53,289 nt of DNA from a virus (IMGVR_UViG_3300033434_000393:1-53289); one strand, 5' to 3'. Numbered from the stretch's first letter, positions 1,333 through 48,552 are shown. Numbers and translations are program-made. Notes: a model not told the origin generated them from the sequence alone.

Positions 1333-1362
1333 GCTGACTTCGTAATGAAGCCAGCCTTTTTT
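1333..1362 (+). terminator. Weak terminator/attenuator hairpin in the leader
   Basis: GCTG-A-CTTC/GTAAT/GAAG-C-CAGC followed by C and T6; one internal A-C mismatch on the + strand. Confidence 0.6.
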
Positions 1363-1417
1363 GTTTGTATACTACTTAAACGCATATTTCTATGCTATGT
1401 GCCTAACAAATTCGGTT

Positions 1418-30006: not shown

Positions 30007-33000
30007 CGAAATTGATTGATGTATATAGAGTTGTAAGTGGTATTGAAACGGTAGTGTATCGGATTTCAAAAGAGAAAGCGACGCTCTACCAAACGATCAT
30101 GGACAAGGATAAGGTGACTATTGAGGTAGTCACCGAGGATCCTATATCTTTGCAAGAAGGAGATTATATACTCGTTGATGGAGTCAAGTATAAGATAAAC
30201 CGTGATCCGGAAGAAAAACAGTCGTCCGAGAAGAAACATTCATATACAAGCTCTTTTGAGGCTCCTATTTATACGCTGATCGATAAGCTATTTTGTAGCA
30301 AGATCACCGGTTATACTACATTCACTCTTACAGGTAAATTGAGAGACTTCCTCGAGCTGCTTATCTGGAATGTGAATTATGACGCAACCGATAATCCTAA
30401 AGGTGTTGATGTAGGTTGGACGATAGGTCTTTGTCCGGACACCGATTACATGAATATCACGTTTGCAGGGGTTACGTGTCGCGATGCACTTAATACTTTT
30501 GAATCCAAATTCGGTGTTGAATACTATGTCGAAAACAAAGCCGTCAACTTTGTATCTCACATAGAAAAAGAGACCGGGCTTATATTTACGCAGGGCAAGG
30601 GTGAAGGCTTGTATGAGGTAGATAAGAAGAATGTAGATGATGGCGATCTTGTTACCCGTGTGTATGCAAAGGGAGGAACAGAGAACGTTATTCCCGGAGA
30701 AGGTGATTATGACGGTCGGCTTATTCTTCCGGAAGGATATATTGAAAACTTCTCTGATAGCAACAGGGTAGTTGAGGCTGTTGTCGAGTTTGACGATATA
30801 CATCCGACATTCGAGGGTGCTGTCGGGGTTGTCAGCGGGGATAATAATCGCGAATTTATTTGTTCGGCTATCGACTTTGATTTGGCTGATGTTGCCGTAT
30901 CTGATGAAGCACGTGTTAACTTCCTCACTGGTGATTTGATGGGCAAATCCTTTGAGTTCAAATGGAATAATTCCCTAAAGAAGATTACTCTTATCTATCA
31001 GGAAGATGAATTGGCGGCCATTGATGCAACGACAGGTGTCCGTCCCAATATACCCAGTACTTCCAAATATCTTAGAGGTGGGGAGCTGTTCAATTTTACG
31101 GGTATCAAACTTAGTGGTACCTACAAAACGAATGCGATCACTAAACTACGTGCTAAGGCTACAGAATGGCTGTCTTATTATTGCCGAAAGAGAGTTAAGT
31201 TTGAACTCAATGTCGATTATCGGTATCTACGTGAAAAGAAAATCACTTTGCATTGTGGCGATCTAATAACCATAAATGTTCCTCTCCATAATATTAGCAA
31301 GTTTATTCGTATAACTTCCATTGAAAGGAACTTGTACACGGGCAAATTGACCTGTGTCGTGTCTAACTATCTTGATGAGAAGTGGAAAGATAAGATTGAA
31401 ACGGAAGTTGCTAACATCAAATCTTCAACAACTACTGTAAACGGCGGTTATGGAGCTTCAAGCGTATCAATATTAGAGACAATTGATGAACGTGAGGCTT
31501 CTGATAGCAATGTGCTCTCTTCGTTACGTGCGTTGAAAGAGATTGCAGAGAGAGCATTGTCAAGAACTAGTGCTGACACGGCAGCTGGACTAATAACATT
31601 CATAGAAGGTCTGGTTTCCAAAAAGGTTATCACTGCAGAAGATGGCCTTTTGCTAGGAAAATATGTAACTGGAGTTTCAGGAGGTAAGATAGATTCCAAC
31701 GGTGATGCCGAAGTACGTAATCTCATAACACGTATAAAAGCCACGGTTGCGGAATTGGAAGTAGCCGGAAATGCAAAAGCAAAGACGGTAACTGTATCGG
31801 ATAAAGTCACCACGCTGAATTTGCTCGTCCAAAAGCTTGCAGAAACATACGATCTGAACGTTTCCAATGTTGCCACTCTCTTTCGCACGGTAGTTAAGGA
31901 TTATGTAAGCTCCGAATCTTTTGTTCCCGGCATAACGGGTGAAGGGATGAAGCTATACAAGTCACTTTCGGGTGATTGGAATTTCGAAGTGGATAACGTT
32001 GTTATCCGCAAGGCCATGACCGTTTTTGAGCTGATCATTTCAAAGGTCAGGGCGGTTAATGGCGGCTTGGTTGTCTCTCCTGCAAACGGGCGTATCAAGT
32101 CAGTAACAGAAACAACAGGCTCACCAACTTACTACGTGTTAGGTATTGAAGGCGATATGACTTTTGTCGCCGATGACTTGGTACGCTGTCAGGTATTCAG
32201 TGCTACAGGGGCAAAATACTACTGGGTGCCAATTGATTCGGTGAGCGGTGAAACGATACTGATTCTTAAATCAAACTTCCCGGATGGAGTTGTTCCGGCC
32301 GTTGGTGATGATCTTGTGCAGATGGGTAATAAAACGAACACGGCCCGGCAAGGTGTATTGTATCTCACCGCATCCGAAGACGGCAAACCCCGCTTTAGTG
32401 TGCTTGATGGTGTCAGCTCTACTGATCTGACAGGTAAGTCCAAAGTGATATTAGGTTGCTTGGATGGGATTACCGATTCCGATTTTCCTTCCGATGCGCA
32501 GCCTAACGGTTACGGCCTTTGGGCGGGTAATGTGTTCTTGAAAGGGCTGTTTATCCTACGGAATGGCAAGTCTGTTGAGGATGAACTAAGCGATCAGATA
32601 ACGGCCGTTCAGACAGCTTTCGAGATACGGGAGGGGCAAATAAGTACAAAAGTCACACAAGCCACACAGGCGGCCGCCGAAGCATCCGGATATGCAATTT
32701 CAGCGGCGGGCAGTGCTTCATCTGCCGGTCAGTCCTTAACCGCTATCACACAAAAAGAGAGTAGTATCAATCAGACGGCCAACGAGATCACATTAAAAGT
32801 CACTCGTGCAGAGAGTGCCGCCGGACGTGCGGAGAGTGCCGAAGCTTCGATCAATGTAAAAGCTGACGGAATAGTTTTGCAGGCTAGTAATCAAGCAGCA
32901 CAAACGGCCGTGAATGGCGTGCAGGTTGGAGGACGAAACTATTATTCTAATTCTCAGACTCCTATTAGTATCCTTATCGGTAGCCCACATATTGAGAAGA

Positions 33001-34382
33001 ATATTTCAACCGCACCCAATGGGCTTTATTTGGTAGGCTCTCAAGGTGATACAAGTGCGATAAGAATATCTAATGTAATAAACAGTAATGGTTATTGGAC
33101 AATCTCATTTGATCTTAAAGGTTCTCAAAATGCGTCTGTGGGATTTTGGATAGACCCCTGTGATTTGGGAGGCCCTATTGTTAGAACTACGACTGATAAC
33201 AATTGGGCGCATCACGCATACACCTTTAATGTAACTAATTATACGGCGGATGTTTACAATTTTATAGATTTCCATGATATAAGTTGGGCGTATATTTTTA
33301 TTAGGAATCTTAAAATAGAAAAAGGAAACAAGGAAACTGATTATACACCCGCCCCGGAAGATGTAGATGCAGATATAGCCCTTCGACCGACAACGGAGTA
33401 TCTTAAATCCCAATTTATCATAACCCCCGGTGGCATTTCATTAATTGGCAAAGCTTTGTCATTAGCCGGAATGGTAACTTTCAGCTCGTTGGACAGTGAT
33501 TCACAGGGGCGAATAACTACCGCTCAGTCAACGGCGAACACTGCTTTGTCTAGTGCCGATGCGGCCAATAGCGGATTAAGCACATTAAAAAACTCTTTGG
33601 GTGGTTTGGCTTATGAAAGTGTCGTTTCACTTGCCAGGCTTGACAATACGGTAATTGAAGGCGGTTATATCAAAACATCTCTGATTGATGCGGACGCTAT
33701 AATGACCGCATCGCTTTTAGCCACTAAGATAGCCGCCACGGATATAACAACGGGCAGATTGACTGTTACATCCGGAGCAAAGATAGGCGGTTGGTCCGTT
33801 GAGGGTAACGCATTGAAGATAACTAGTGCAGCAGGTGCCAAAATATTAGTAGAACCATCGGGGACAAGATTCTTACGAATTAATGACACGTCTACTTATC
33901 TTATGCAGATAAGGGCCGATGCCGTTACGGGGCTTTACTGCTATACCGACGAAACAACGGGAATATGTATCAAGTTAACCGCTCAACAAGGCGGAACGGC
34001 CTTGTATTCATCCGGTAATCACACATTTATTGCGAGGACAGGAGAATCAACACTGATGACAGGTAGAACGCTGTTATACGCCCCTAGTTTTTACCCTACG
34101 CGTGTGTCGGCTAACCTATCACTAGATTACAGTCAGGCATTCATTGTTAGTACGGCGACAAGCGACATAACCCTTTCCTTACCCGCTAGTCCGACAGTTG
34201 GAAAACAGTATTGGGTGAGAAAAACAGCCGCAGGGAATATTACTATCGCTTCAACATCAAGTAATATTCTTCATGCCGGGACGTATGGAACAGGCTATGT
34301 CTCAAGCGTTAAAGTAGCTTATGGGCAACTATATCATATCATATATGACGGCTATCACTGGCTTGGAAGTTTCAGTAATTAA
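30003..34382 (+). CDS. Baseplate hub/tail spike with receptor-binding C-terminus
   Basis: Tal-like N-terminus (VTRVYAKGG), coiled coil, GGRNY...KIEKGNKETDYTPAPED module, fibre-like end. Confidence 0.8.
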   Translation: MTKLIDVYRVVSGIETVVYRISKEKATLYQTIMDKDKVTIEVVTEDPISLQEGDYILVDGVKYKINRDPEEKQSSEKKHSYTSSFEAPIYTLIDKLFCSKITGYTTFTLTGKLRDFLELLIWNVNYDATDNPKGVDVGWTIGLCPDTDYMNITFAGVTCRDALNTFESKFGVEYYVENKAVNFVSHIEKETGLIFTQGKGEGLYEVDKKNVDDGDLVTRVYAKGGTENVIPGEGDYDGRLILPEGYIENFSDSNRVVEAVVEFDDIHPTFEGAVGVVSGDNNREFICSAIDFDLADVAVSDEARVNFLTGDLMGKSFEFKWNNSLKKITLIYQEDELAAIDATTGVRPNIPSTSKYLRGGELFNFTGIKLSGTYKTNAITKLRAKATEWLSYYCRKRVKFELNVDYRYLREKKITLHCGDLITINVPLHNISKFIRITSIERNLYTGKLTCVVSNYLDEKWKDKIETEVANIKSSTTTVNGGYGASSVSILETIDEREASDSNVLSSLRALKEIAERALSRTSADTAAGLITFIEGLVSKKVITAEDGLLLGKYVTGVSGGKIDSNGDAEVRNLITRIKATVAELEVAGNAKAKTVTVSDKVTTLNLLVQKLAETYDLNVSNVATLFRTVVKDYVSSESFVPGITGEGMKLYKSLSGDWNFEVDNVVIRKAMTVFELIISKVRAVNGGLVVSPANGRIKSVTETTGSPTYYVLGIEGDMTFVADDLVRCQVFSATGAKYYWVPIDSVSGETILILKSNFPDGVVPAVGDDLVQMGNKTNTARQGVLYLTASEDGKPRFSVLDGVSSTDLTGKSKVILGCLDGITDSDFPSDAQPNGYGLWAGNVFLKGLFILRNGKSVEDELSDQITAVQTAFEIREGQISTKVTQATQAAAEASGYAISAAGSASSAGQSLTAITQKESSINQTANEITLKVTRAESAAGRAESAEASINVKADGIVLQASNQAAQTAVNGVQVGGRNYYSNSQTPISILIGSPHIEKNISTAPNGLYLVGSQGDTSAIRISNVINSNGYWTISFDLKGSQNASVGFWIDPCDLGGPIVRTTTDNNWAHHAYTFNVTNYTADVYNFIDFHDISWAYIFIRNLKIEKGNKETDYTPAPEDVDADIALRPTTEYLKSQFIITPGGISLIGKALSLAGMVTFSSLDSDSQGRITTAQSTANTALSSADAANSGLSTLKNSLGGLAYESVVSLARLDNTVIEGGYIKTSLIDADAIMTASLLATKIAATDITTGRLTVTSGAKIGGWSVEGNALKITSAAGAKILVEPSGTRFLRINDTSTYLMQIRADAVTGLYCYTDETTGICIKLTAQQGGTALYSSGNHTFIARTGESTLMTGRTLLYAPSFYPTRVSANLSLDYSQAFIVSTATSDITLSLPASPTVGKQYWVRKTAAGNITIASTSSNILHAGTYGTGYVSSVKVAYGQLYHIIYDGYHWLGSFSN

Positions 34383-35049: not shown

Positions 35050-35523
35050 ATGGAAGAGAGTAATGTAATTAAAGGCACATCGGTTATCATCTTCGGAGGT
35101 GAGATGTTAAGCCTGTTTTGGGATTTGAGATGGATGATAATGTTGGCGGTTATCTTGGTGGCCGTTGACTTTAGATTCGGGGTAAAGGCGGCACAAGCAA
35201 GGGGAGAAAAGATTCGTAACAGTAAAGCCGGACGAAGAACAGCAAACAAGCTGATCGACTATATCTGTTACCTTGTTCTTGGCGGGTTGATTGGTAAAGC
35301 TATCGGCGAACCTCTGGGAATTAACCCTACGCTTGTAGCTGCTGTTTGTATGGGTGTTGCATGTCTGTTTGAAGTGGATAGCATTCTTCAAAACATCTGC
35401 GAGTATAAGGGTGTGAAGTATTCCTTTAGTCTTTGGAAAGTGATCATAGCCTTGGTGAAGTCTAAGCGGAAAGATATCGGTGATGCCATTGAAGAAGGAG
35501 TAGGAAAGGAGGAAACGAAATGA
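35050..35523 (+). CDS. Holin
   Basis: Three hydrophobic segments, RRTANKLIDY, SILQN; first gene of the lysis cassette. Confidence 0.85.
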   Translation: MEESNVIKGTSVIIFGGEMLSLFWDLRWMIMLAVILVAVDFRFGVKAAQARGEKIRNSKAGRRTANKLIDYICYLVLGGLIGKAIGEPLGINPTLVAAVCMGVACLFEVDSILQNICEYKGVKYSFSLWKVIIALVKSKRKDIGDAIEEGVGKEETK

Positions 35524-35939
35524 TTAAGCTGTTATTAAAACGAATAGCCCGGAAGCCCGGCTACACTATCGGAAAGTTGTTTGTTGATGGTGAGTATTTT
35601 TGTGATACGCTGGAAGATACCGATCGATTGGATGAAGGCATGAGCCTAGATGAGATTAAGAAGTTGAAACAATCGGGACAAACAGCCATCCCTGAAGGTT
35701 CATACAAAGTAATTGTGAACGTGTCTCCTAAATTTAAGCGGTTGTTGCCCCGTTTACAGAATGTACCGGGATTTGAAGGTGTACTGATTCATCGTGGTAA
35801 CACGGCCAAAGATACTTCAGGCTGTATCCTTGTTGGTGAAAATAAGAAAGTCGGGATGGTTCTGAATTCTACCTATTATGAAGAGAGGCTTGTCGAACTG
35901 CTCAAGCATGATAATAACATTTCAATTGAGATCGTATGA
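35520..35939 (+). CDS. Putative endolysin (DUF5675-like)
   Basis: YTIGKL, CDTLED, TAIPEGSY, IHRGN...GCILVG; lies between holin and spanin. Confidence 0.8.
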   Translation: MIKLLLKRIARKPGYTIGKLFVDGEYFCDTLEDTDRLDEGMSLDEIKKLKQSGQTAIPEGSYKVIVNVSPKFKRLLPRLQNVPGFEGVLIHRGNTAKDTSGCILVGENKKVGMVLNSTYYEERLVELLKHDNNISIEIV

Positions 35940-36379
35940 GAAATAAGATTTATATAATAGCGTTCTTTGTGATCGTTATGTTCGTTATGAGTGTCGTTTG
36001 TTCCTGCTCCGGAACAAGGCATGTCACGGTAGAGCGTATCAAGAACGAAAGTGCATATGTTGAGAAGCTAAAGAGAGATAGCATCTACCAACGTGACAGC
36101 ATATATATGCTCGTCAAGGGTGACACGGTATTTAAGTATCAGTACAAGTATTTATACCGTGATAAGCAGGTAAGCGACACGGTATCGGTAATTAAGTTTG
36201 ATTCAATCCCTTATACAGTAGAGGTACCTAGGTATATTGATAAGAAATTATCTTGGTGGCAAAGCGCACTCATCTTGACTGGGGGTATCGCATGGGTGGT
36301 AGCTATACTCGGTCTCATGTACTTGACAAACAAACGCTTTAATTGGCTATCTCTGATATTGAAATTAATAAAGTTGTAG
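35936..36379 (+). CDS. Unimolecular-spanin-like lipoprotein
   Basis: N-terminal signal ending in a lipobox-like Cys (VVCSC); C-terminal TM helix after LSWWQ. Confidence 0.7.
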   Translation: MRNKIYIIAFFVIVMFVMSVVCSCSGTRHVTVERIKNESAYVEKLKRDSIYQRDSIYMLVKGDTVFKYQYKYLYRDKQVSDTVSVIKFDSIPYTVEVPRYIDKKLSWWQSALILTGGIAWVVAILGLMYLTNKRFNWLSLILKLIKL

Positions 36380-36393
36380 TCGAGTAGAAGTGA
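36380..36393 (+). repeat. Direct repeat TCGAGTAGAAGTGA, copy 1
   Basis: Exact 14-mer also at 38529-38542. Confidence 0.8.
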
Positions 36394-36441
36394 CTATCTT
36401 TTTGTTGCAAATGTGCTTCTATAAAAGAAGAAAGTCGGAGT

Positions 36442-36645
36442 TTATCTCTTCGACTTTCTTGCAATTTCTTCAGAATATTTAAAAGCGTCTTTCATTTCGT
36501 ATTTCCCTGATTCTTTCATTTTTTTATGAATATAAGAAACACAAGAATCATATTGGTCATCATGCGAACTTGGTTTATATGGGACTGCTTCTGATTTATA
36601 TTCTATATTCCCATAATTGGCTGTAACAACTAACTTCTTTACCAT
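36442..36645 (-). CDS. Small hypothetical moron protein
   Basis: 67 aa; TACCTTTG box at 36682-36675 and AAGGAGG upstream. Confidence 0.65.
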   Translation of the reverse strand: MVKKLVVTANYGNIEYKSEAVPYKPSSHDDQYDSCVSYIHKKMKESGKYEMKDAFKYSEEIARKSKR

Positions 36646-36719
36646 ATTTATTCCTCCTTTCTTAGTTTGTTTTCAAAGGTAATTAATTTATAAATTGATT
36701 ATCTGGTGTTTTCATATAA

Positions 36720-36951
36720 TTAGTCGTTTCATCATAGCGATATATGGATTTAACTATTTCTTCGCATCTTCAAGACTAGATTCAATATTACTTGGATGAT
36801 AGAATCCCAAAGAATATACCTCTTGTGGTTTTGTTAAATGACTAGTCTACCAGTAATAAAAAATACTTTTTTTCTATTCTGCCAACTACTTGAACGCTAT
36901 CGCCGTATTTATCTTCAATTTTAAAATTAGTATTTCAATGATTCGAACCAT
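36720..36951 (-). pseudogene. Probable degraded small gene
   Basis: TATATTTG box about 36980-36973, ATG at 36951, protein-like segments broken across frames by stops. Confidence 0.35.
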
Positions 36952-37324
36952 ACTTTTATGATTTTAATGGATCAAATATATTAAAAATAGATTGTTTATC
37001 AAATAGCGGAGATAAATCTATGTTGTTTGATAGACCATTGCGATATGTGGTTCCATAATCTCATTATTTGATGATTTTTATTCCTTTCATAAAATAGTTG
37101 CAGCATAAGCACAGTTTTTGACTATATAATCTTATATAAATGCATTTTATATAATTCGTTTTGCACAATCATATTGTAAATACAAATGTTATTTTATGTT
37201 TACTGTAAAAAAAAGAATGTATTAGTATATAATATACTTATTTTTTTATTATAATTTTGAACCAGCATTTTCGAGTCTGAATAATTTTATATAAAATAAT
37301 ATTTTAATTTAATATGTATATATT

Positions 37325-37723
37325 ATGGAAACAGTAAGAACTGCAAAGGAATTAGGTGTAGCCTTAAAAAAAAATGAAAGCTATATTTATGTCGAAGGAG
37401 ATTTAAAAAATAAAATAATAAAAATTAAACTGGCTGGAAAACTAGCTTGGGTTGTAGCTGGAGGAGCAATTGCTGCTGCTGTTGCTCTATATATAGCAAC
37501 ACCAGCTGCTACAGTAGCAACTGCTGGTGCTGGCGGCCTAGTATCTTTCACTGGGTCGGCTACAGCTGCCACCGCCGCCGTAACAATTCTAGGATTACCT
37601 GCTACTGTTGTAGCTATTACTATTGCTGTTACTGCAGGAGGATATGCCTCGCTTTCTTCTCTCAGAGATGAATATGAGATTGTGAAAAAAGAGAGCAATG
37701 GTATCCTCTTAAAGAAAAAGTAA
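37325..37723 (+). CDS. Ala/Gly-rich membrane protein
   Basis: About 70-aa hydrophobic Ala/Gly/Thr core; TAATTTTG box at 37252. Confidence 0.7.
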   Translation: METVRTAKELGVALKKNESYIYVEGDLKNKIIKIKLAGKLAWVVAGGAIAAAVALYIATPAATVATAGAGGLVSFTGSATAATAAVTILGLPATVVAITIAVTAGGYASLSSLRDEYEIVKKESNGILLKKK

Positions 37724-37730
37724 AATTCAT

Positions 37731-38267
37731 ATGGATATTAATCAAATTCTCAGTTCTATATCTTTGTCGACAATTGCTGTTGCAATATGGCAGACAAGGG
37801 TAACGCTGGGGCTTGATAAATCAAGTAAAAGGAAGGAAGAAATAAGTACTACTTTGGACCTGTGCTATAAGATCTTTCAGAACGATATTATCCCATATTA
37901 TATTGAATTGATTTCATTTTATGACATGCACCAATTACATTTTCTAGAGGAAATATACATAGATGAAGAAAAACAGATATTACATAAGCCTATAGTTGAA
38001 GGAGAAGAAGTCAATCTTTTTTTTAAGAATTTGATGTTACTATTTAATAAGATGGATTCATTTGCTTCGTATTTCGTGATGAATAGTTCTATTGCAGATG
38101 AATATATGGCCTACCAAATGCAAGGGAATGCCTTTTGTGGCATAATCGAACGATTGAAAGGGGGATATATCCTTTTTTTGATAAAAAATAAAGAGGATTA
38201 TGTGTGCTTAGTGAAGTTGTATGATATTTGGATAGAGCGGAAAAATAAGGAATCTTTAAATATTTGA
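37731..38267 (+). CDS. Hypothetical protein with N-terminal TM (DUF4760-like pattern)
   Basis: IAVAIWQ anchor, LFNKMDSFASYF...IADE...LYDIW. Confidence 0.55.
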   Translation: MDINQILSSISLSTIAVAIWQTRVTLGLDKSSKRKEEISTTLDLCYKIFQNDIIPYYIELISFYDMHQLHFLEEIYIDEEKQILHKPIVEGEEVNLFFKNLMLLFNKMDSFASYFVMNSSIADEYMAYQMQGNAFCGIIERLKGGYILFLIKNKEDYVCLVKLYDIWIERKNKESLNI

Positions 38268-38528
38268 CGTTTGGTTAAGAGTAAAAACATCCCTAACCAA
38301 CTTTGTTCATCAATGCTCATGTAAGCGACATTAAAACATATTATCCAAATTCATTTAGAATTACTACACCAACAGTAATTCACTTAAAGAGTGGAGAAAA
38401 GATTACAGTAATGCAGAGTGTTGACCAAATTAAATTTATTATGTAGAAATGGTTCTGTTGAGCTTTTAGCTTGATTAAATTCTTTTATTAATTTTCATGA
38501 TCTTGATCTATTAAATATGTTATTGTGA

Positions 38529-38542
38529 TCGAGTAGAAGTGA
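38529..38542 (+). repeat. Direct repeat TCGAGTAGAAGTGA, copy 2
   Basis: Exact match to 36380-36393. Confidence 0.8.
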
Positions 38543-38730
38543 TTCCTTTTTTCGATAAACATTTGGCCTCTATTTTTTTTCGGAATTGGGGCTGCTTACT
38601 TTATCTTCAGTATTTATTGATTATCTTTTGAAAATCAATTCTTTTAGCCATTTAATTAAAGAAAAAGGGCAAAATGAAAGAAATAGATTATATTTGCATT
38701 CATTTATTATTCACTGTATTTAATAAGACT

Positions 38731-40719
38731 ATGAGAAAAATCTATCTTCCAGAATTGATAAGTATCAATATTAAAAATTTCACATTATATCCCAACGGGT
38801 TAAATTATGAATATGATTTTGTCAAAGGTGTTAATTTGATAATAGGTGGCAATGGAATGGGCAAAACAACATTTGTAAATATTATTAAATATGCAATTAT
38901 TGGGCATTATAAAAAACAGTTTGACTATACAAAAACTTATAAAGATCGGCTTATAGAAAAGAGAATTCTTTACCCTCTAAATTATTTCAAGAATAGAATG
39001 GATGATGAATTTGTTAAAACCGAAAATGCTAAAGTTATTATTCATTTTAACATTAATCAGAAACGTTTTAAAGTTGAAAGAGATTTGGAGGAAATTACAT
39101 TAAGTTCTTTTTCGGTTGATGGAAATATAATAGATGGTACTTTGATAAGTCAATCAAAATATGAAGCATTGAACGAAAATGACAAATCTGTTTTTTTGCA
39201 ATTCAAATATGAAAAACTAATAGAACAATATTCAGGACTGTTGTTTGATGATTTAATTTTCTTTGTAAATGAGATACTCTTTTTTGGGGAAGATCATAAA
39301 ACAATCTTGTGGAATGATGGAGTAACTGGTAGCAACGTCCAAAATGAACTTTTTAATAATTATTTTAATAGTCCAGAGTTAAATCGCGAACGGCAAGAGG
39401 CGCAACGCCAAGCTAAATACTTTGATAGCTTATCTAGACATCGCTCAGAAGATATTAGAGCTATAAGAAAAGTTTTAGATAAAGTAAGTAATAATGATGG
39501 AAGCTCTGATTCTACTATAGATATGATTAAGTTTCAATCCGATATAGAGGACATAGATTATGAAATTGAAAAAATACAATCTTCTAGAGTAAGTAATGAT
39601 ACTAGAGTTTCATTACTGCAAAACAAACTTAATGAATTGATTATTAATTCAAATGAGCTAGAAATTCAGAAAAACAAAACAGAGAGTGAATTAATCAGTA
39701 AGGCTTGGGAAACCTTGCATCCTCAATATGATATTTTCGCTAAAAATATAGAATATAATCATATATGCCCTATTTGCAATAAGCCAAATGATAATTTATT
39801 TCATGATTTGTTAGAGCATCCTAATTGTTGTTTTTCTTGTGGAGCTGAGATAGAGGAAATTACGGATGATAATCTCAAAAAAAAATATAAAGATATTTCT
39901 AATGAATATAAGAATATTCATATACAAATTCAGAATAATCAAAAGGAAATAAAACAGAGTGATGATCTGAATAGAAATCTTGATAACGAATTTAGAGTGT
40001 TAGATTTAAAAAAAAGGAAGTTGCAGACAAAACTAAGAGCTGTGGAATTTTCAAAATCAAAGAATAATGAAAACAGTGATTTGCAAGTCTTTCGTGATGA
40101 AATTTTTAGATTGGAGAAAGAAAAAGACTTAAATCAGGAAAAAAGCAGAATAGAATTAGCAAGAGCCGACCTTTTTTCTCGAGAAATTGAATCTCAAATA
40201 ACTCAAAATGTTAGTAAGTTCTCTTCTCTGTTCTCATCTTTTGCTGAGAGTTTTTTGGGTGTAACATGTTCCTTGACTTTCGATAACTTGAACGGTACTT
40301 CTAAGAGACGATTTTATCCTGTAATAGATGGACGTATACGCTTCTATGAAGAAGAATTATCAGAATCTCAAAGGTTTTTTATTGACCATTCATTCAGAAT
40401 GAGCATTCTCTCGTTTTTTTATACAACTCCAACATTCTATATTGTAGAAACCCCTGATAGCAGTTTAGATATATCATATGAGAATAATGCAGCAACTGTT
40501 TTTCTGAAGTTTTTAAAGCAACCTAATTCTTTGATTATCACTTCAAATTTAAATAATAGCTCTTTTGTTAATTATATAGTAGATAATAAAGAAGATATAT
40601 GTGTATCAATTATTGGATTATTGGATATAGCAAAACAATCTGTAATACAAAATACAAGTGAAATATTACTTAATATGTATCGTGATATAAAAAGTAAAAT
40701 CAGTAAAAATAATGAATAA
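38731..40719 (+). CDS. SMC/Rad50-like ABC ATPase with zinc hook
   Basis: GGNGMGKTT Walker A, coiled coils around CPIC...CFSC, LSESQR signature, IVETPDSSLD; TATATTTG at 38689 favours ATG 38731. Confidence 0.85.
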   Translation: MRKIYLPELISINIKNFTLYPNGLNYEYDFVKGVNLIIGGNGMGKTTFVNIIKYAIIGHYKKQFDYTKTYKDRLIEKRILYPLNYFKNRMDDEFVKTENAKVIIHFNINQKRFKVERDLEEITLSSFSVDGNIIDGTLISQSKYEALNENDKSVFLQFKYEKLIEQYSGLLFDDLIFFVNEILFFGEDHKTILWNDGVTGSNVQNELFNNYFNSPELNRERQEAQRQAKYFDSLSRHRSEDIRAIRKVLDKVSNNDGSSDSTIDMIKFQSDIEDIDYEIEKIQSSRVSNDTRVSLLQNKLNELIINSNELEIQKNKTESELISKAWETLHPQYDIFAKNIEYNHICPICNKPNDNLFHDLLEHPNCCFSCGAEIEEITDDNLKKKYKDISNEYKNIHIQIQNNQKEIKQSDDLNRNLDNEFRVLDLKKRKLQTKLRAVEFSKSKNNENSDLQVFRDEIFRLEKEKDLNQEKSRIELARADLFSREIESQITQNVSKFSSLFSSFAESFLGVTCSLTFDNLNGTSKRRFYPVIDGRIRFYEEELSESQRFFIDHSFRMSILSFFYTTPTFYIVETPDSSLDISYENNAATVFLKFLKQPNSLIITSNLNNSSFVNYIVDNKEDICVSIIGLLDIAKQSVIQNTSEILLNMYRDIKSKISKNNE

Positions 40720-41329
40720 TAATAAAGAGCTATATTATGCAAATGAAGATATTCTTTGCATAACAGATAATGTAAAGTCGATAGGCTGGGAATCAATTAA
40801 GGAACAATCGCTGCAGAGGATTGTATATTTAGTAAAGGTATTATATTCTTTTACTCATTTGAATGAAAATATATTTGGCTATTATCATTTTTCAGTTTCT
40901 TTGTATGGACCTTTTTCTGGGCTAATAAAAAATAGTGTTATATATTTGAAGAGTGATATGTTTTTGTTAGACACTGATGATGGAGGAGTTAAATATAATC
41001 GTAGTAATTCTTTCGTATGGAAAAATGTAGAGAAAGAAAAATGGATAAAAACGATCATTCTTATTCTAGGAAAATATGGAGAAAATAGAATTTTTGGGTT
41101 TACGATTAATGACCCTCTTTATAAAGAAGCTGTTGAAAATAACCAAGTAAGAGAATTGGATACTTCGTCTCCAGAAAATAGAACAATTAAAGTTTTAAAT
41201 GAGTTTAAACAAGCTTTTGAAGAGACTCTAAGTAGTACTTCCTTTATTGATGCTGAGAAATATCTAGATCTTTATTTTGAATATATTTTTAGTCAGATTA
41301 TAAATAAAAACCACTTGCATGAACTATGA
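40712..41329 (+). CDS. Putative middle component of an ABC three-component/Lamassu-like operon
   Basis: 205 aa overlapping both neighbours; LQRIVYL...YGPFS wHTH-like pattern. Confidence 0.55.
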   Translation: MNNNKELYYANEDILCITDNVKSIGWESIKEQSLQRIVYLVKVLYSFTHLNENIFGYYHFSVSLYGPFSGLIKNSVIYLKSDMFLLDTDDGGVKYNRSNSFVWKNVEKEKWIKTIILILGKYGENRIFGFTINDPLYKEAVENNQVRELDTSSPENRTIKVLNEFKQAFEETLSSTSFIDAEKYLDLYFEYIFSQIINKNHLHEL

Positions 41330-42434
41330 TTTTAGAAACAATACTGACTTTAAAGAGATTTTGAGGCAGCAAGAAAAACGTATTTTAAGAAGGACCATTG
41401 AGGGCATTCAAGAAACGTCTACATTTAAACAATTTTATTTATCCTTAATATCATATTTGAGAAAAAGTGCATTTTTTGATTTTAAAGTCCTGTTAATCAA
41501 CAAACAAGATCTTGAGAATTTATCATCAGGGAATTGTATAAATAAATTATTTGCAATTTTGGATTCTGATGATTGTGTTCATAATAATTATGTAGTATTA
41601 AATAATGAATTAAATATTGTAGATAAAATTTATAATAATAACTACCAAAATTCAAATAGTGCTCGTAGAATTTATGCAGAATTATCTCATGATTTTGTGG
41701 TTTTTTTACTTCAGCCTAACGCTATCGTTACTTACTTTATAGATGGTGAGGATTTTGGAGAGAATATCTTTTTTACTATGGAAGATTATAGGTCTTACGA
41801 AGAAAAAAAATCAATCGATCGTATCTGTGAATTATTCGAGGACTACCGGCAACGCCTTAAAAGTAGAGATGTATATAATAAATTTTTTGTTTCTAAGAGT
41901 CACTTGCTTTCTCTGAAAACAGATATGGGCTCACAGCTAGATGATAAAAAATATATTTATGATAATAAGCAGTTATTGGAAAATAAGCCAGAAGATAAAT
42001 TTCGTGAGGATTTAAGATTCTTTTTATCTGAAAAATTGAAGGCTAATTTTCTATCGAAAGAATATATATTAGAAAATTTCAAACGTTTGGATATATTTAT
42101 ACTTGATGAATCGGGATATGAGTTATACCTTATCGAGGTAAAATGGGTCGGAATTAGTATAAATCCGTCTGGAAAAAAAACAGGAACTTCGTATTCTGAA
42201 AGAGATATAGTACCTAATGCAGTAAAACAAACCGTTGGGTATCTCCGACAGCTCTTCGATGAGCAGAAAAATATTAAGTTAGGGTATCTGGCTGTATTTG
42301 ATGCAAGAAAGGAGGATTTACCTGATACCGGCAATTCAATCAATAATCTTTGCTTTGAAAATGAGGATGCAATTCATTTTAGAAAATTTAGAAAAATTGC
42401 TGATTTTAGAGTGTTAAATGAACATCCGGCTTAA
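41319..42434 (+). CDS. Putative PD-(D/E)XK nuclease effector
   Basis: PEDKFRE...RLDIFI...YLIEVKW...QTVGYL catalytic-like motif. Confidence 0.6.
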   Translation: MNYDFRNNTDFKEILRQQEKRILRRTIEGIQETSTFKQFYLSLISYLRKSAFFDFKVLLINKQDLENLSSGNCINKLFAILDSDDCVHNNYVVLNNELNIVDKIYNNNYQNSNSARRIYAELSHDFVVFLLQPNAIVTYFIDGEDFGENIFFTMEDYRSYEEKKSIDRICELFEDYRQRLKSRDVYNKFFVSKSHLLSLKTDMGSQLDDKKYIYDNKQLLENKPEDKFREDLRFFLSEKLKANFLSKEYILENFKRLDIFILDESGYELYLIEVKWVGISINPSGKKTGTSYSERDIVPNAVKQTVGYLRQLFDEQKNIKLGYLAVFDARKEDLPDTGNSINNLCFENEDAIHFRKFRKIADFRVLNEHPA

Positions 42435-43735
42435 GATCTTATGACAATAACACTTTCCCGAAGAGATTTTATTGTTTCAGATTGTTGTGAGCTCGCGTTT
42501 AAATCACGAGCTTTTCTTATTTCAACTATTTTGAATCCTCTTTTTTCCGCTATTTGGCAAACTATTTCATCAACAATGATCTCTACTCCATAATATGCTG
42601 AATTTGCAACATTAAAATATATATATTTGTTGGGCTGCATCTTCTTTTTAAATTCAGAAAAAAGAAAATCGATATCAATAAAATATCCTTTGATCATATT
42701 TAGCAGATCGGAATTCCAAAAAAAATCTTTATTTTTCTCTATTGATGTAATACAATCTTCTAGCAGCGGAATCTTTAATGTATCTAAACGCCCATGTTTG
42801 ACTTGAACATGTGACCTTAATGTTTTTTTACGAAGATCTTGCAATTCTTTATAGCTACTAACTAGGCCAAGCATCTTAAGCTCAAGCATATATATATCTG
42901 TGTAGTCTCTTGAATTAAGATATGGAGGTGAAGTGATTATAAGATCTATGGAATTGTCTTTAATAATATTTATTTTTTCTCTGACATCTCCATAGTAACA
43001 CAGATTATGATTACTAACAATTTGATTTGATGACATATCAATATTTGATATATCATTGAAAAATATCGTGTCTAACTTTTCTATGAAAATTTGGTGTACC
43101 TCTTCTCTAGTGTATTTTATAATATCTTGCCATTTCCTTTTATAAGATAGACATTTACCATTTCTAAAAACGTTACTTACCTGTAATAGAATTGATGCCA
43201 ATGCTATTTTGAAAAGATCTTGATATTTGCAGTCAGGTATCCTATTTATTGCGTATTTTATATCCAATATGCCGTCAATAGAACTATCGTTATAATTCCA
43301 TTTTGTTAATTTGTCCGTTTTAATTAACGTCTTTCCAAAAGGTATTTGTTCAATTTCCCTTATATTTATAGGGGGTAATTCAAGTAATTCTTTTATGCGG
43401 TCAGAATAATTGATAAATTCTAGGAGAGTATAATCTCGCCTCATCTTTACCGTAGAGAGTAAATACATAAATGGACTAACTTCAAATGAAGTACATCTAA
43501 TATTTTGATCTTGTAACTCAACAGGGGTGGTTCCACTTCCTGCAAAAGGCTCAAGAACAAAATCTGGAGTATAGTCTAATTCATCCAGAATGCTTTGAAT
43601 GAACTCTTTAGAGTATCCTTCAACAAACGGATACCATTGATGTATAGGAACAGACTTGTTTTTATTAAACTGCATGATAGATTTATACTTTTCAGTATAA
43701 TCAACGATTTTAAATGCAGATTTTTTTTTTTCCAT
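42431..43735 (-). CDS. DNA methyltransferase, probably N4-cytosine (alpha motif order)
   Basis: HQWYPFVEGYS, EPFAGSGTT (motif I), then ITSPPY (motif IV); TATATTTG at 43800-43793. Confidence 0.85.
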   Translation of the reverse strand: MEKKKSAFKIVDYTEKYKSIMQFNKNKSVPIHQWYPFVEGYSKEFIQSILDELDYTPDFVLEPFAGSGTTPVELQDQNIRCTSFEVSPFMYLLSTVKMRRDYTLLEFINYSDRIKELLELPPINIREIEQIPFGKTLIKTDKLTKWNYNDSSIDGILDIKYAINRIPDCKYQDLFKIALASILLQVSNVFRNGKCLSYKRKWQDIIKYTREEVHQIFIEKLDTIFFNDISNIDMSSNQIVSNHNLCYYGDVREKINIIKDNSIDLIITSPPYLNSRDYTDIYMLELKMLGLVSSYKELQDLRKKTLRSHVQVKHGRLDTLKIPLLEDCITSIEKNKDFFWNSDLLNMIKGYFIDIDFLFSEFKKKMQPNKYIYFNVANSAYYGVEIIVDEIVCQIAEKRGFKIVEIRKARDLNASSQQSETIKSLRESVIVIRS

Positions 43736-44429
43736 ATCGATTTTGTAGAAAAAACAGATGAAATTTACGTAACAGACCTACCTGTTTTTATGCAAATATA
43801 GATAAAATTATCTATTACTTGAAAGATTTTCTATTAAAATTCGCCGTATGCATCTGCTGAACTCTGTATCTCAAAATCCTTGAAGTATATCGAAAGTCTA
43901 CAGATATTCTTCAGGGATTTGCTTTATTCTTCAATGTTATATTAAAAGCTCCTAAAACATTCGGAGGCTGTTAGGAGACTATCGAAGAGATGCAGCTGCT
44001 TGCGATAGATGGATTGTGTTACGTCTTATTTCCAATAATTCATTGCTCTGCAATTGGCCTGCGGTAGAAAACCTACATCGTGATTCACGAGGTAAGGGTA
44101 CAAACATCCACGATCTTCTATTGTACGGTGGTGAATAGTATTAGAGTGAGGAACATTTTCCTCATTTCTTAATTTACCCCGCTTCAGTGTCTTATACATG
44201 TAGGAAATCTTCCTCATTCTATTTTGCTCTGTTTTGGTGGAGCTTCCTTCTTATACAATATTCCAGCAAAATTATATACCCAATTCTACAATATTCAGCG
44301 TTAAATTATATACAACCCCCGCTTTATTGGAAATTTATCCCGCTAAACAGGAAATTTTATATGTCTTTTTCGGAAAAAAACATATAAAAATTGCATTTTT
44401 GCAGATGAAATTTTTCTGATATTTATATT

Positions 44430-44642
44430 ATGATGACATTACATGAAGCTATAGTAGAATTGCTAAAAGAGAAAGGGCATTCTATGACCACAACAGAGAT
44501 AGCAGACGCTCTTAATGAAAATAAGTGTTATCTCAAAAAAGATGGAAGCGCTATAACCCCATATCAGATACATGGGCGAACAAAGAATTATCCTAATTTA
44601 TTCAGGAGAGAAGGATCAACTGTATTTTTAATAGGAGCGTAG
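44430..44642 (+). CDS. Stand-alone HARE-HTH-like winged helix protein
   Basis: MTLHEAIVELLKEKGHSMTTTEIADAL...YPNLF. Confidence 0.6.
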   Translation: MMTLHEAIVELLKEKGHSMTTTEIADALNENKCYLKKDGSAITPYQIHGRTKNYPNLFRREGSTVFLIGA

Positions 44643-45109
44643 AGGTATACTCTTATTTCTTCTATCGCCTGTATAGTTGACCTAACAACAACATATTTAC
44701 TCCGACATGCTTCTGCTTGCCGTTGAAACTCTTTCTGCTCATCAGACTGTCGCCCAGTAGAGGTTTTAAATTCCAAGCATAAAGAAGCATAACCCTTTTT
44801 CGGCACCAATAGGATAACATCAGCCACCCCAGCTTTAACCCCTTGCCGTTTCATATTGGCTGCTTCGATTTTATGCCGGCTGCCTCCATTGGGAACAGCG
44901 AAAAGAAGTTTTTCCGGAAGCTTGGGAAATAAGATCTTCACTTGTCGGAAAAACTCTACCTGCATGTCTGCTTCTTCGTGTCTTACCACTCTTTTCTTCC
45001 GTGGTGGCATCTTTGTATCTGCGTAGCAATTATAGCACATGTAGCCATTATCTGTTTTCATGACGGAAACAGTTTCTCGGCCACATGCGATACATTTTTC
45101 TTTATTCAT
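44588..45109 (-). CDS. VRR-NUC nuclease with N-terminal zinc finger
   Basis: FAVPNGG, GVKAGVAD, LEFKT, QSDEQKEFQ; CIAC/CYNC; start placed at MNKEKC. Confidence 0.88.
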   Translation of the reverse strand: MNKEKCIACGRETVSVMKTDNGYMCYNCYADTKMPPRKKRVVRHEEADMQVEFFRQVKILFPKLPEKLLFAVPNGGSRHKIEAANMKRQGVKAGVADVILLVPKKGYASLCLEFKTSTGRQSDEQKEFQRQAEACRSKYVVVRSTIQAIEEIRVYLYAPIKNTVDPSLLNKLG

Positions 45110-45113
45110 ATCG

Positions 45114-45434
45114 TTACTCCTTGAAAAGATCAGTAAGACTTTCACATCGACTGAATGTGCATTTTTTGCTATCCACCGTACAGGTACCTTTATGGAAACA
45201 CCCACAAACATTGCGGAAATTTTTGAGTACCGTCTTTTTCTGTTTCTCATTGTGCTTGATTAAAGCACGCTGTATAGCATTTGAAGTCATAACAGCATCT
45301 TCGTTGCTTTGCCATTTTGTGCCTTCTCTAAAGCCATCTTCATATATATTTCCGTAGATGATCCCTCTTTTTATGCCAAACTTATTTTTGAGAGCATTTT
45401 CTATTGCGACATTTAATTTATCTTCTTTGTTCAT
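45114..45434 (-). CDS. Hypothetical phage protein
   Basis: 106 aa, YEDGFREGTKW, Cys-rich tail. Confidence 0.65.
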   Translation of the reverse strand: MNKEDKLNVAIENALKNKFGIKRGIIYGNIYEDGFREGTKWQSNEDAVMTSNAIQRALIKHNEKQKKTVLKNFRNVCGCFHKGTCTVDSKKCTFSRCESLTDLFKE

Positions 45435-46056: not shown

Positions 46057-47751
46057 TTACATGTCATCATTATCTTCTTCATCATCGTCACTATTAAAAA
46101 TGTTAGCAATCATATCCACAATATTTTCTTCTATCGCTTCAGTGGATCCGGTCACAGCATTAGCAATATTCTTTTTCGTCTGTATAATGCGGTATATCTT
46201 CCCGTCTATGGTACTTTTGCCAAGAAAGTAGTAAATGGTAACAGCATTCTTTTGCCCTATTCTGTGCGCCCGGTCTTCACACTGGCAACAGTCTGCATAC
46301 GTCCATGGGAACTCAACGAAGGCCACATTGGAAGAGGCGGTAAGCGTAAGACCAACTCCTGCAGCTTTGATACTACAGATAATAATGTCCACCTTGGGGT
46401 TATTCTGGAATGCATCTACAGCTGCTTGCTTTTCGTCCGAAGAATCTCGGCCGGTCACCGAAACGGCTGTGGGAAAATGCATCTTTAGTTGATCCACAAC
46501 TTCATGGAGAGAGCAGAATAGAATGATCTTCTGTCCATTCTCCCTGAAATCTTTCACGAATTCAATCACCTCCTTTACTTTACCTCTTGCAGCAACTTGG
46601 CGGAGAATATTAATGCGTACCATCACTTCACCTTTCATTGCACGAGCTATCTTTTCATCATCGGCATCTTTATACTTCTGTAGATAGCTTATAAGATCGC
46701 TTTCGGCATCTTTATATTCTTTCCTGTTTGTGATTTCACAAGTCAGTACCTGGCGCACCTTATCCGGAAGATCTTTAAGCACAAGTGATTTCTCGCGCCT
46801 GAACATGCAATTTGTCCAGAGCTTGAAGTTTAGCTCTTTTAGATTGCTTGCTTCGTTTGGGCCGGAACAGTACCTATCAACAAAACTCTTGTACCCTCCA
46901 AAGTCATCCATACGCTCGAGTATGGAGAGCTGTGGCACTAAATCTTTTGGCTTGTTTACAACAGGTGTTCCAGTTAATTCTATAATGTATTCTTTCCCTT
47001 TACAGATGCCTTTAGAGAACTTTGCTTGTTGCGTGCTGGATGATTTGCAGCGGTGAGATTCATCGATGATAACAGACTTGAATAGATTAATCGTCTGCCT
47101 GAACTCTACATCACGAAGTGTCCATCCTTCAGCCTTTTTGATCCGCTGAACGAAGTATTTCTTTAGCGATTCGTAGTTGACAATGAATACCTGATACATG
47201 CCTGTTTGCCAGAAGAACGGCCATGTATCGCGAACATTATCAGATAACACCATTGCCTTTTTATCGGTAAACTTGTGCCATTCTCTTTCCCAATTGATTT
47301 TCAAAGATGAAGGGCAAATAACCAAGCAAGGAAAGGCGTTAGCTAGATTGATCGTGGCGATTGATTGCAACGTTTTTCCCAAGCCCGGTTCATCCGTATT
47401 CATGAACCGTTTCAATTCCAAGCCCCGTTGTATACCTTCCAATTGATAGGGGTAGGGAGTTATTTTTAACCCGTGAGGGCGATCCAATGCTTTAAGCTCT
47501 GGCAGTTCATAGGCAACATCCTCTTCTTGGCGAGTTGCCACATGTTGATCTCCTGTACCCCAAGTCACTGGCTCAAACTGCCGAATCTGATACGCTAGTC
47601 GCTCGAGTTCAATCCTTTTGGAGACGGGTACCGTCCATATCTTGCGAACGGAATCATATTTCCGTCCTTCTATCTGCTTTATCTTGCCTACAATCATTGG
47701 CCTATACCTGAATTGCAGTTCGAATACGTTTGATTTTAGAATTATATTCAT
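46057..47751 (-). CDS. SNF2-family (HARP/SMARCAL1-like) helicase
   Basis: DEPGLGKT, DESH, LTGTP, GVGLTLT, QCEDRAHRIGQ; start placed at MNIILKS. Confidence 0.9.
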   Translation of the reverse strand: MNIILKSNVFELQFRYRPMIVGKIKQIEGRKYDSVRKIWTVPVSKRIELERLAYQIRQFEPVTWGTGDQHVATRQEEDVAYELPELKALDRPHGLKITPYPYQLEGIQRGLELKRFMNTDEPGLGKTLQSIATINLANAFPCLVICPSSLKINWEREWHKFTDKKAMVLSDNVRDTWPFFWQTGMYQVFIVNYESLKKYFVQRIKKAEGWTLRDVEFRQTINLFKSVIIDESHRCKSSSTQQAKFSKGICKGKEYIIELTGTPVVNKPKDLVPQLSILERMDDFGGYKSFVDRYCSGPNEASNLKELNFKLWTNCMFRREKSLVLKDLPDKVRQVLTCEITNRKEYKDAESDLISYLQKYKDADDEKIARAMKGEVMVRINILRQVAARGKVKEVIEFVKDFRENGQKIILFCSLHEVVDQLKMHFPTAVSVTGRDSSDEKQAAVDAFQNNPKVDIIICSIKAAGVGLTLTASSNVAFVEFPWTYADCCQCEDRAHRIGQKNAVTIYYFLGKSTIDGKIYRIIQTKKNIANAVTGSTEAIEENIVDMIANIFNSDDDEEDNDDM

Positions 47752-47802
47752 AGCTTCTTCTTTATTAAAGGGTGCCCCGCTACAGGGCACTCTCTTTCTT
47801 TG

Positions 47803-48438: not shown

Positions 48439-48474
48439 ACTTTATATGATTAAATTCTATCAAAATTGATATTG

Positions 48475-48552
48475 TGGAGAGTGGCGGAATCGAACCGCCG
48501 CCCGGCTGTCTTGACTGTGCGCACCGCTGCTCATCCACTGAGCTAACTCCCC
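48475..48552 (-). tRNA. tRNA-like RNA with non-canonical anticodon arm (no identity assignable)
   Basis: Acceptor GGGGAGT/ACTCTCC, D arm GCTC/GAGC, T arm GGCGG-TTCGATT-CCGCC; the 28-nt central region does not form a 5-bp/7-nt anticodon arm; no encoded CCA. Confidence 0.7.

Follow-up and report, generated by a model that had tools for sequence, protein, structure and literature searches.

The closest described relatives of the locus reported here are the Lamassu type II ('short') or ABC three-component (ABC-3C) systems, encoded in the order LmuA-LmuC-LmuB (Vibrio cholerae DdmABC; Salmonella LmuACB, PDB 9hqx, 9ny5, 9uxh). According to two accounts, the effector is sequestered by two LmuB subunits and LmuC as long as no DNA ends have been sensed; once released, the nuclease cuts any DNA, with the death of the cell as the outcome. 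Lamassu is portrayed there as abortive, with self-control by sequestration alone, and the characterised systems need no methyltransferase (10.1101/2025.03.14.643221, 10.1101/2025.06.23.660979). The word 'methyl' does not occur in the Lamassu papers PMC10586767 and 10.1101/2025.04.02.646746. Here, we describe a four-gene cassette in a provirus of 53,289 bp from IMG/VR (IMGVR_UViG_3300033434_000393; estimated completeness 93%), in which a Lamassu-like three-gene operon meets a convergent DNA methyltransferase gene. The whole stretch of 53,289 bp is referred to as the window, and all positions are counted from its first letter.

The genes of the cassette and the two promoter-like boxes beside it are as follows:

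38731-40719, plus strand: LmuB-like SMC/Rad50-type ABC ATPase, 662 amino acids (aa)
40712-41329, plus strand: middle component, 205 aa; 8-nucleotide (nt) overlap with the ATPase gene
41319-42434, plus strand: predicted nuclease effector, 371 aa; 11-nt overlap with the middle gene
42431-43735, minus strand: DNA methyltransferase, 434 aa; convergent with the nuclease gene
38689-38696, plus strand: TATATTTG box, candidate Bacteroidota -7 element for the ATPase operon, 42 nt before the ATG at 38731
43793-43800, minus strand: TATATTTG box, candidate separate methyltransferase promoter, at -65 from the ATG at 43735

The TTAA at 42431-42434 is common to the convergent stops of the nuclease and methyltransferase genes. 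The original prediction was borne out in its coordinates and gene overlaps, in the D...EVK and SPPY motifs and the TTAA shared by the stops, and in the two TATATTTG boxes and the low G+C. The ATPase open reading frame (ORF) could be opened at either 38674 or 38731. The latter start is preferred because all 28 aligned homologues begin at or near 38731, because nucleotide similarity to the nearest relative (L053) opens at 38730 and because the promoter-like box falls within the longer ORF. Considering the evidence below, we lean towards the view that the cassette is a mobile restriction-modification-like defence, carried as a prophage moron, in which a Lamassu-type gated nuclease is made safe by a self-mark.

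Linkage of the methyltransferase to the three-gene operon

The association of the methyltransferase with the ATPase, middle and nuclease genes (the triad) was surveyed from both sides. On the nuclease side, a nuclease alignment was searched against one genome per species, and the 49 loci obtained were checked by tblastn, phmmer and hidden Markov models (HMMs). On the methyltransferase side, the best 80 of 564 relatives from a metagenome scan were taken (30-74% identity). The methyltransferase was located beside triad genes in 45 of the 49 genome loci. Two of the four exceptions (L033 and L046) were cut by a contig end on the side where the methyltransferase would lie, and the other two (L036 and L050) were weak nuclease-domain matches without an ATPase, which therefore do not belong to this system. 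From the other direction, triad genes adjoined the methyltransferase in 73 of the 80 metagenome loci, the seven exceptions being contigs of 1.4-2.6 kb or, for L062, cut at the gene. Both surveys were pooled with one further locus (L052), and L051 was dropped as it has the same DNA as L002, which gave a set of 130 loci. A methyltransferase beside at least one triad gene was present in 119 of these. The 11 pooled exceptions were nine short or cut contigs and the two weak nuclease-domain matches without an ATPase, none of which is an informative counter-example. Given these counts, the unit is one of four genes in near-obligate linkage.

This linkage persisted through three gene arrangements and the whole span of the family. 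The methyltransferase was placed downstream on the same strand in 73 loci, upstream on the same strand in 35 and on the opposite strand, as in the window, in 11. Across the linked loci, identity to the window fell to 25-30% for the methyltransferase and 18-23% for the ATPase. The window and every related locus inspected had the order ATPase-middle-nuclease; ORFs of ~200 and ~340 aa filled the middle and nuclease places where the HMMs had missed those genes, and a gene of ~200 aa occupied the same position in every complete locus inspected. In many loci, the methyltransferase gene was joined by a start/stop overlap to that of the ATPase or that of the nuclease. The cassette methyltransferases all belonged to one family. 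Pairwise identities in 36 cassettes gave Spearman coefficients of 0.74-0.85 among all four proteins and 0.74-0.78 for the methyltransferase against the other three, values that are uncorrected for shared ancestry and come from phylogenetically non-independent sequences.

Three loci (L084, L090 and L099) had a split ATPase or middle gene together with an intact methyltransferase, and no clear case of the reverse was found among the loci; the sample is small and assembly errors are possible. Within this small sample, the direction of decay is as expected of restriction-modification.

Two loci carried more than one copy of the triad. In Flavobacterium calami (L003, 4394-13252), two complete tandem triads were followed by a single methyltransferase, and the second triad was very divergent, its ATPase being 24% identical to that of the window. 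The metagenome locus L128 (3-6360) comprised a triad, a gap of ~1.6 kb and then a methyltransferase gene that ran into the beginning of another ATPase gene, and appears to hold two cassettes side by side.

The nearest relative of the cassette, the metagenome locus L053, showed 70.8% DNA identity over window positions 38730-43737, with no similarity in the flanks. As the similarity is confined to this interval, the four genes form a mobile unit, and the positions 38731-43735 mark its exact limits. The convergent arrangement with overlapping stops was found again in L053-L056 and L095.

The original prediction had suggested that the methyltransferase may be part of a hybrid system, while allowing that it could be an unrelated neighbour. 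The latter explanation could draw on a gene that is convergent, has its own promoter-like box and has relationships unlike those of the triad. It is effectively excluded, given that both parts are carried by 119 of the 130 loci with 11 uninformative exceptions, that the DNA similarity of L053 spans all four genes and ends at their outer limits, and that the overlapping-stop geometry is kept in L053-L056 and L095. A single recent clone is likewise excluded by the protein identities of 18-74% among the sampled loci. The co-occurrence check therefore showed that homologous operons do not lack the methyltransferase (45/49 and 73/80 loci), and the hybrid reading gained support from linkage in both search directions.

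The TATATTTG octamer occurred 11 times in the window against 5.05 copies expected, a count that was reached by two of 100 shuffles. The octamer fits the Bacteroidota -7 promoter consensus, given as TAnnTTTG in PMC7366714, for which the chance expectation is ~0.07 per 110 nt. In L053, copies of this octamer stood 37 and 59 nt before the two start codons, compared with 42 and 65 nt in the window. In the co-directional relatives L016, L020 and L057, a TAnnTTTG box preceded the approximate ATPase start by 26-30 nt, and the methyltransferase had no such box in front of it. From these sequence patterns, it is plausible that the convergent subclade has two independent promoters. A sigma-70 promoter scan remained at shuffle level (52 vs 51.5), that consensus being irrelevant for a Bacteroidota host.

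Predicted proteins and proposed mechanism

The LmuB models were the best PADLOC match for all 28 family ATPases (best E-value 1.8e-24), and the window ATPase matched the LmuB model PDLC03859 over its full length (4.9e-14). Judged by these matches, whose scores are modest, the ATPase is a distant LmuB relative. PADLOC mad3 was also matched by 27 of the 28 family ATPases (best 1.3e-16), and many of them match PbeC or DndD. When the family profile was searched against the PDB, Rad50 and SMC heads were retrieved (E-values of ~1e-9 to 1e-8) and no nearer solved relative was seen; a search with the single ATPase sequence returned Rad50 P-loops only. The Walker A motif GxNGxGK(T/S)T, the signature LSESQR and the D-loop were conserved in the 28 sequences. 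A CxxC...CxxC motif was present at the coiled-coil apex in 25 and missing in three. Four apex cysteines per chain look more like a zinc ribbon than the classical two-cysteine Rad50 hook. The predicted 'zinc-hook SMC ATPase' accordingly stands as an SMC-like ATPase, with a four-cysteine motif for the 'zinc hook'.

In an HMMER alignment against SMC2 and SMC3, the family Walker B (D/E)-T-P-(D/E)-x-S-L-D corresponded to the SMC motif D-E-V-D-A-A-L-D, and an invariant threonine (T574) occupied the position of the catalytic glutamate. Li et al. (10.1101/2025.03.14.643221) describe LmuB proteins as having glutamine at this position, weak ATP hydrolysis, a length of ~600 aa and a zinc hook. When compared with LmuB by that published description, the threonine is a different residue, but probably has the same consequence as the glutamate-to-glutamine change. 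The lost catalytic base common to both would therefore constitute a further likeness to LmuB.

The model of the middle protein (predicted local distance difference test, pLDDT, 83.7) consisted of a winged helix and a helical tail. In VIA-align its top match was 7yk3_D (Z-score 10.3), and LmuC of the solved Lamassu complexes was matched at Z 8.6 (9hqx_d, 120 aligned) and 8.5 (9ny5_C, 124 aligned). By Foldseek against the PDB, the LmuC chains ranked third and fourth, yet at an E-value of ~0.4. The modelled fold thus resembles LmuC, and together with the LmuB-like ATPase it makes the earlier comparison with Lamassu and ABC three-component systems an apt one. The window protein itself had no family in Pfam, PADLOC, PHROG or NCBIfam. 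Among 30 middle proteins, six Pfam families were matched at E-values up to 0.1, each in one to three members (HTH_45, HemN_C, SocA_Panacea, DUF2115, Nha1_C and Alpha-amylase_C), none of them an ABC-3C middle-component family. Stray Panacea and DarG matches were also given by the middle-protein family.

The nuclease model (pLDDT 88.9) was divided into a C-terminal PD-(D/E)xK domain (residues ~165-371) and an N-terminal domain (~1-165) with no function assigned by family or fold. The residues D258, E273 and K275 (E273-V274-K275) were invariant in all 35 nuclease sequences, and the D...EVK motif was retained in a variant too divergent for the nuclease HMM. The best VIA-align matches of the model were AF1548 (8.0), NucS (7.5) and BglII, BamHI and McrC (7.0), followed by SduA, OkrAI, BstYI and many restriction enzymes, and the fold matches of the C-terminal domain were nearly all PD-(D/E)xK enzymes. 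The C-terminal domain, as modelled, is of the restriction-endonuclease fold. The window nuclease had no Pfam, PADLOC, PHROG or NCBIfam family. LmuA chains were not among the 50 matches listed for the model, although this does not show the two folds to be different.

The nuclease N-terminal domain evolves faster than any other part of the cassette, at 28-41% identity in the close group and ~10% beyond it. Its candidate roles are docking, DNA reading or ligand sensing. Residues ~28-150 (41319-41810) were weakly similar to the DisA/CdaA diadenylate-cyclase fold (Z 5.5-6.6; Foldseek E-values of 1.5e-3 to 1e-1). A cyclase activity was considered for the domain and dropped, as the conserved residues, compared by eye, do not resemble the DGA/RHR cyclase motifs.

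The methyltransferase matched Pfam PF01555 (N6_N4_Mtase) at 34.9 bits against a gathering cut-off of 26.7, PADLOC MTase_II PDLC03224 at 2.3e-58 and phrog_18146 at 2.3e-36. The FxGxG motif (residues 63-70, with G66/G68 of the S-adenosylmethionine (AdoMet) motif) and S269-P270-P271-Y272 were invariant in all 26 methyltransferases. This motif order is reversed relative to the nearest solved relatives, and a long insert (residues ~110-240) separates the AdoMet and catalytic motifs. As the profile matched both N6-adenine and N4-cytosine enzymes in the PDB, the predicted methyltransferase with SPPY was upheld, while its N4-methylcytosine ('m4C-type') label, drawn from SPPY alone, was not.

In the mechanism that we propose, the methyltransferase would be expressed from its own promoter and would mark a short sequence motif on the lysogen chromosome and the prophage. 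The LmuB-like ATPase dimer would serve as an ATP-gated DNA clamp or sensor, not as a fast motor, because the catalytic Walker B glutamate is lost, as in LmuB. The ATPase and the LmuC-like winged-helix protein would hold the nuclease in check until incoming DNA, through free ends, replication intermediates or unmarked sites, licensed the PD-(D/E)xK nuclease. The nuclease would then cut DNA without the methyl mark, and methylated host DNA would be spared. Such a cassette would be a restriction-modification system with a Lamassu-type restriction arm, or a Lamassu that does not need to kill its host. Complex formation, the trigger, the methylation sensitivity of the nuclease and the defence phenotype are what we infer in this scheme. 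Restriction-modification has as its classical genetic signature a nuclease arm in near-obligate pairing with a methyltransferase, since the nuclease does harm where the mark is lacking. The same logic is suggested by the few loci with a split ATPase or middle gene and an undamaged methyltransferase.

A broader formulation can be put forward tentatively. The cassette may represent a new restriction-modification class, in which a methylation-sensitive nuclease is gated by an SMC/Rad50-type ABC ATPase with impaired hydrolysis, together with an LmuC-like partner, so that the sensor fires without host killing. It might in this way bridge abortive Lamassu and restriction-modification, with a temperate phage guarding its lysogen. 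A bolder corollary would be that the separately promoted, exchangeable methyltransferase supplies specificity for both arms.

Several results weigh against the restriction-modification-like scheme. The PADLOC LmuA model was matched by one of 35 nucleases (0.0015), and the LmuC model by one of 30 middle proteins (0.027). Foldseek against the PDB gave nothing at an E-value of 0.001 or below for the nuclease or the middle-protein model, and the Z-scores of the fold matches were middling for both (8.6 or less, save one of 10.3). Among longer homologous proteins no fused nuclease forms were seen, which is weak evidence, and no DNA-sequence reader was evident in the triad. In 22 close cassettes, the triad genes tracked one another at 0.88-0.90 and the methyltransferase tracked the triad at 0.55-0.70. 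The window methyltransferase was nearest to L005-type cassettes (55-58%), whereas its ATPase, middle and nuclease proteins were nearest to L002-L004. From these differing nearest relatives and the looser tracking it follows that the methyltransferase has been exchanged between cassettes of the family, which is awkward if the nuclease reads the same motif by itself. With regard to novelty, no description of a methyltransferase-linked Lamassu-type cassette was found in the portions of the Lamassu/ABC-3C literature covered, among which Krishnan et al. 2020 was not included. That work reportedly treats ABC ATPase systems acting 'together with restriction-modification systems', and may already describe such couplings.

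The exchange would be harmless only if specificity travelled along with the methyltransferase, and this favours an alternative in which the methyltransferase is the DNA-reading subunit of the complex, as in Type III Mod or Type I HsdM/S, with specificity for both methylation and cutting. The single methyltransferase that accompanies two tandem triads in L003 is consistent with it. The methyltransferase insert (~110-240) could be a target-recognition domain, and the start/stop overlaps tie the methyltransferase to the ATPase or the nuclease in many loci. An independent enzyme is a better fit to the opposite strand occupied by the methyltransferase in the window and 11 other loci and to its own promoter box in the window and L053; no fusion was found. 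Overall, we regard a DNA-reading methyltransferase subunit as unlikely, while giving it more weight than the other alternatives considered here.

Prophage setting and distribution

By the Pfam and PHROGs annotation of the window, the carrier of the cassette is a probable Bacteroidota prophage. Genes for PcfK/PcfJ-like proteins, terminase, portal and capsid were present, and a LuxR-type regulator was encoded on the minus strand. The other located features were the following:

1-1296: integrase, Bacteroidota-type
1361-2272, plus strand: further DNA methyltransferase (N6_Mtase, 2.3e-14)
9284-10693, plus strand: further DNA methyltransferase (N6_N4_Mtase, 8.8e-07)
30003-34382: tail gene encoding a 1459-aa protein
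35050-35523: holin
46057-47790, minus strand: SNF2 helicase
51070-52017, minus strand: RecT

The cassette was located at the point where the late (plus-strand) and early (minus-strand) gene blocks converge, between the lysis genes and the early genes. The G+C content was 0.277-0.311 across 38-44 kb, compared with 0.41-0.44 on both sides. Directly past the lysis genes, at 36428-36460 (plus strand), a strong terminator-like hairpin of 13 pairs with a T-rich tail closes the late operon and delimits the AT-rich island on the left. A search of 35900-45300 against Rfam gave no match.

Counting that of the cassette, the prophage encodes three DNA methyltransferases. The two further genes (1361-2272 and 9284-10693) suggest that phage self-protection by methylation is in use, and this is one ground for considering the cassette an ordinary abortive Lamassu-like system, whose methyltransferase has a role other than self-protection, such as regulation or the shielding of phage DNA from host restriction. 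A further ground is that, in the accounts cited above, characterised Lamassu needs no methyltransferase and cuts any DNA once activated (10.1101/2025.03.14.643221, 10.1101/2025.06.23.660979). We consider such an accessory role very improbable, as the linkage holds in chromosomal non-phage contexts, in many phyla and in both search directions, and as one dedicated methyltransferase family has co-diverged with the triad. It would also leave unexplained why the triad was never seen without a methyltransferase.

Other parts of the prophage showed features of a similar kind. A 355-aa protein with an Mrr_cat restriction-endonuclease domain (2.1e-09) was encoded at 23577-24644 (minus strand), on the opposite strand within the tail block, where the local G+C dips to 0.33-0.36, and the prophage probably carries it as a second defence moron. 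A SocA_Panacea antitoxin-domain protein at 8274-8708 (plus strand, 2.2e-20) was followed by a family-less ORF of 143 aa (to 9140) in a 31% G+C islet, and this pair (8274-9140) is a possible toxin-antitoxin. Between terminase and portal, a 417-aa ORF without a Pfam family (13957-15210, plus strand) was located in the kilobase that, outside the cassette, has the lowest G+C of the window (0.281). ARAGORN called a tRNA-like gene at 48474-48552 (minus strand) with a two-base 'anticodon' (cg); either the call is false or the tRNA is odd or degenerate.

IMG/VR contained two loci besides the window, of which one (L051) has the same DNA as L002. This Lutibacter maritimus cassette (L002/L051) is located inside a region of 52,963 bp that IMG/VR also calls a provirus, which makes it the second phage-borne copy, with a Dam-type methylase and a gene of the Mom family nearby. 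The L002 strain is Lutibacter maritimus DSM 24450; strains of Elizabethkingia, Pantoea, Acinetobacter and Parabacteroides are further candidate carriers. Searches of INPHARED phages (DNA and protein) and PLSDB plasmids (protein) gave no matches, and the cassette is rare among known phages and plasmids. The nuclease profile retrieved 437 clusters at 50% identity among 1.84 billion representatives (152 at 1e-10 and 65 at 1e-30), nearly all of 340-380 aa. Though small, the family is broadly dispersed: by the record titles of the genome loci, it occurs in Bacteroidota, Pseudomonadota, Bacillota, Actinomycetota, Chloroflexota, Acidobacteriota and Verrucomicrobiota.

The flanks of 24 genome loci were scanned (125 ORFs of at least 180 aa). 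By our own reading, about 14 of the 24 had defence-type neighbours, which included NERD, HNH, Abi_alpha, HEPN_AbiV, GmrSD, a Type ISP enzyme and Eco57I-type methylases with ResIII, as well as two reverse transcriptases, AAA_21 ATPases and HipA. Mobile-element genes of the flanks were integrases, rve transposases, relaxase/TraG, Tn7-like TniB/TniQ, and Mom with Dam. The movement of the unit into prophages, conjugative elements and transposon-like contexts would be compatible with a main role in addiction, whereby the carrier element is stabilised through the killing of cells that lose it, methyl marks diluting faster than the nuclease. The constant presence of the methyltransferase beside every intact triad, a hallmark of nucleases that are toxic without their partner, is also consistent with such a role. 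Set against this, known defence genes in ~14 of 24 flanks, again by our reading, suggest defence islands, and a gated nuclease that needs a foreign-DNA trigger would be a poor post-segregational killer. Addiction as the main role is therefore improbable in our view; it and defence are not mutually exclusive.

Comparison with known systems

The expectation that the locus would match no named system held. PADLOC 2.0 recognised only the ATPase (LmuB) and the methyltransferase (MTase_II) and reported no system, and no match as a system was obtained in Pfam, PHROGs, NCBIfam or PADLOC 2.0, the last of which has no model of the middle protein or the nuclease.

MADS of Pseudomonas aeruginosa is similar in combining a methyltransferase with an ABC ATPase-nuclease module. 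MADS is an eight-gene system that includes the OLD-type MAD3-MAD4 pair and further mad genes, and the cassette has four genes. The mad3 model has 374 positions and no coiled coil, and its match skips the insert of the cassette ATPase. Only the ATPase head matches mad3 and mad8, and the middle protein and the nuclease match no mad model. An identity with MADS was rejected on the basis of the four genes and the restriction of the mad match to the ATPase head. 'Lamassu-var' of Escherichia coli satellite hotspots, as described in PMC11754643, is a Lamassu relative carried, like the cassette, on phage-related mobile elements. Identity with it was also rejected, as the corresponding locus (L133) is annotated as an ABC-three component system with middle component 2 and has much smaller proteins and no methyltransferase.

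With restriction-modification, the cassette has in common an N6/N4-family methyltransferase and a PD-(D/E)xK nuclease of predicted restriction-enzyme fold, a methyltransferase that is never lost while the nuclease arm is intact, compact convergent or co-directional layouts and horizontal transfer of the whole unit. Type II restriction enzymes need no ATPase, whereas the cassette has one of the SMC/Rad50 ABC type, whose hydrolysis is probably slow or absent. The cassette also has a kleisin-like or LmuC-like partner and no evident specificity subunit. Types I and III restriction-modification use superfamily 2 (SF2) helicase-type motors; none of the four proteins matched an SF2, ResIII or helicase family in Pfam, PADLOC, PHROG or NCBIfam, so the motor of these types is absent from the matches. 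The nucleoside triphosphatases (NTPases) of restriction-modification have so far been of the following kinds: none, SF2 translocases and McrB-type GTPases. If the proposed scheme is true, restriction-modification would be extended to a fourth NTPase kind.

The similarity to Lamassu comprises an ABC ATPase of the SMC/Rad50 type (~600-660 aa) that has a coiled coil and an apex cysteine motif, a nuclease effector, three tightly coupled genes and a location in mobile elements or defence islands, and probably extends to the Walker B without the catalytic glutamate and to the small winged-helix protein, whose predicted fold is LmuC-like. The order of the genes is B-C-A in the cassette and A-C-B in Lamassu. 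The cassette effector has a C-terminal nuclease behind an unassigned N-terminal domain, whereas LmuA carries its effector domain at the N-terminus and ends in a docking or oligomerisation domain. The cassette therefore departs from Lamassu in two defining respects, the architecture of the LmuA effector and the order of the genes. The Walker B glutamate is replaced by threonine in the cassette and by glutamine in LmuB, and the cassette apex has four cysteines. The dedicated methyltransferase is an obligate fourth gene of the cassette, unlike the self-sufficient Lamassu systems of three or two genes.

The results thus add to the comparison a methyltransferase-centred survey, exact limits for the unit, the threonine-for-glutamate Walker B and the LmuC-like predicted fold, as well as the paired promoter boxes and overlapping stops that are conserved in the convergent subclade, the methyltransferase exchange and the prophage setting. 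The cassette is compact (5 kb), and its phage-borne copy would be a case of a prophage arming its host. A Lamassu-type machine that is always paired with its own methyltransferase suggests an epigenetic self-mark, which would enable an SMC-like sensor to be used in non-suicidal restriction. Placed beside the known systems, the cassette looks like an undescribed cross of restriction-modification and an abortive anti-phage system.

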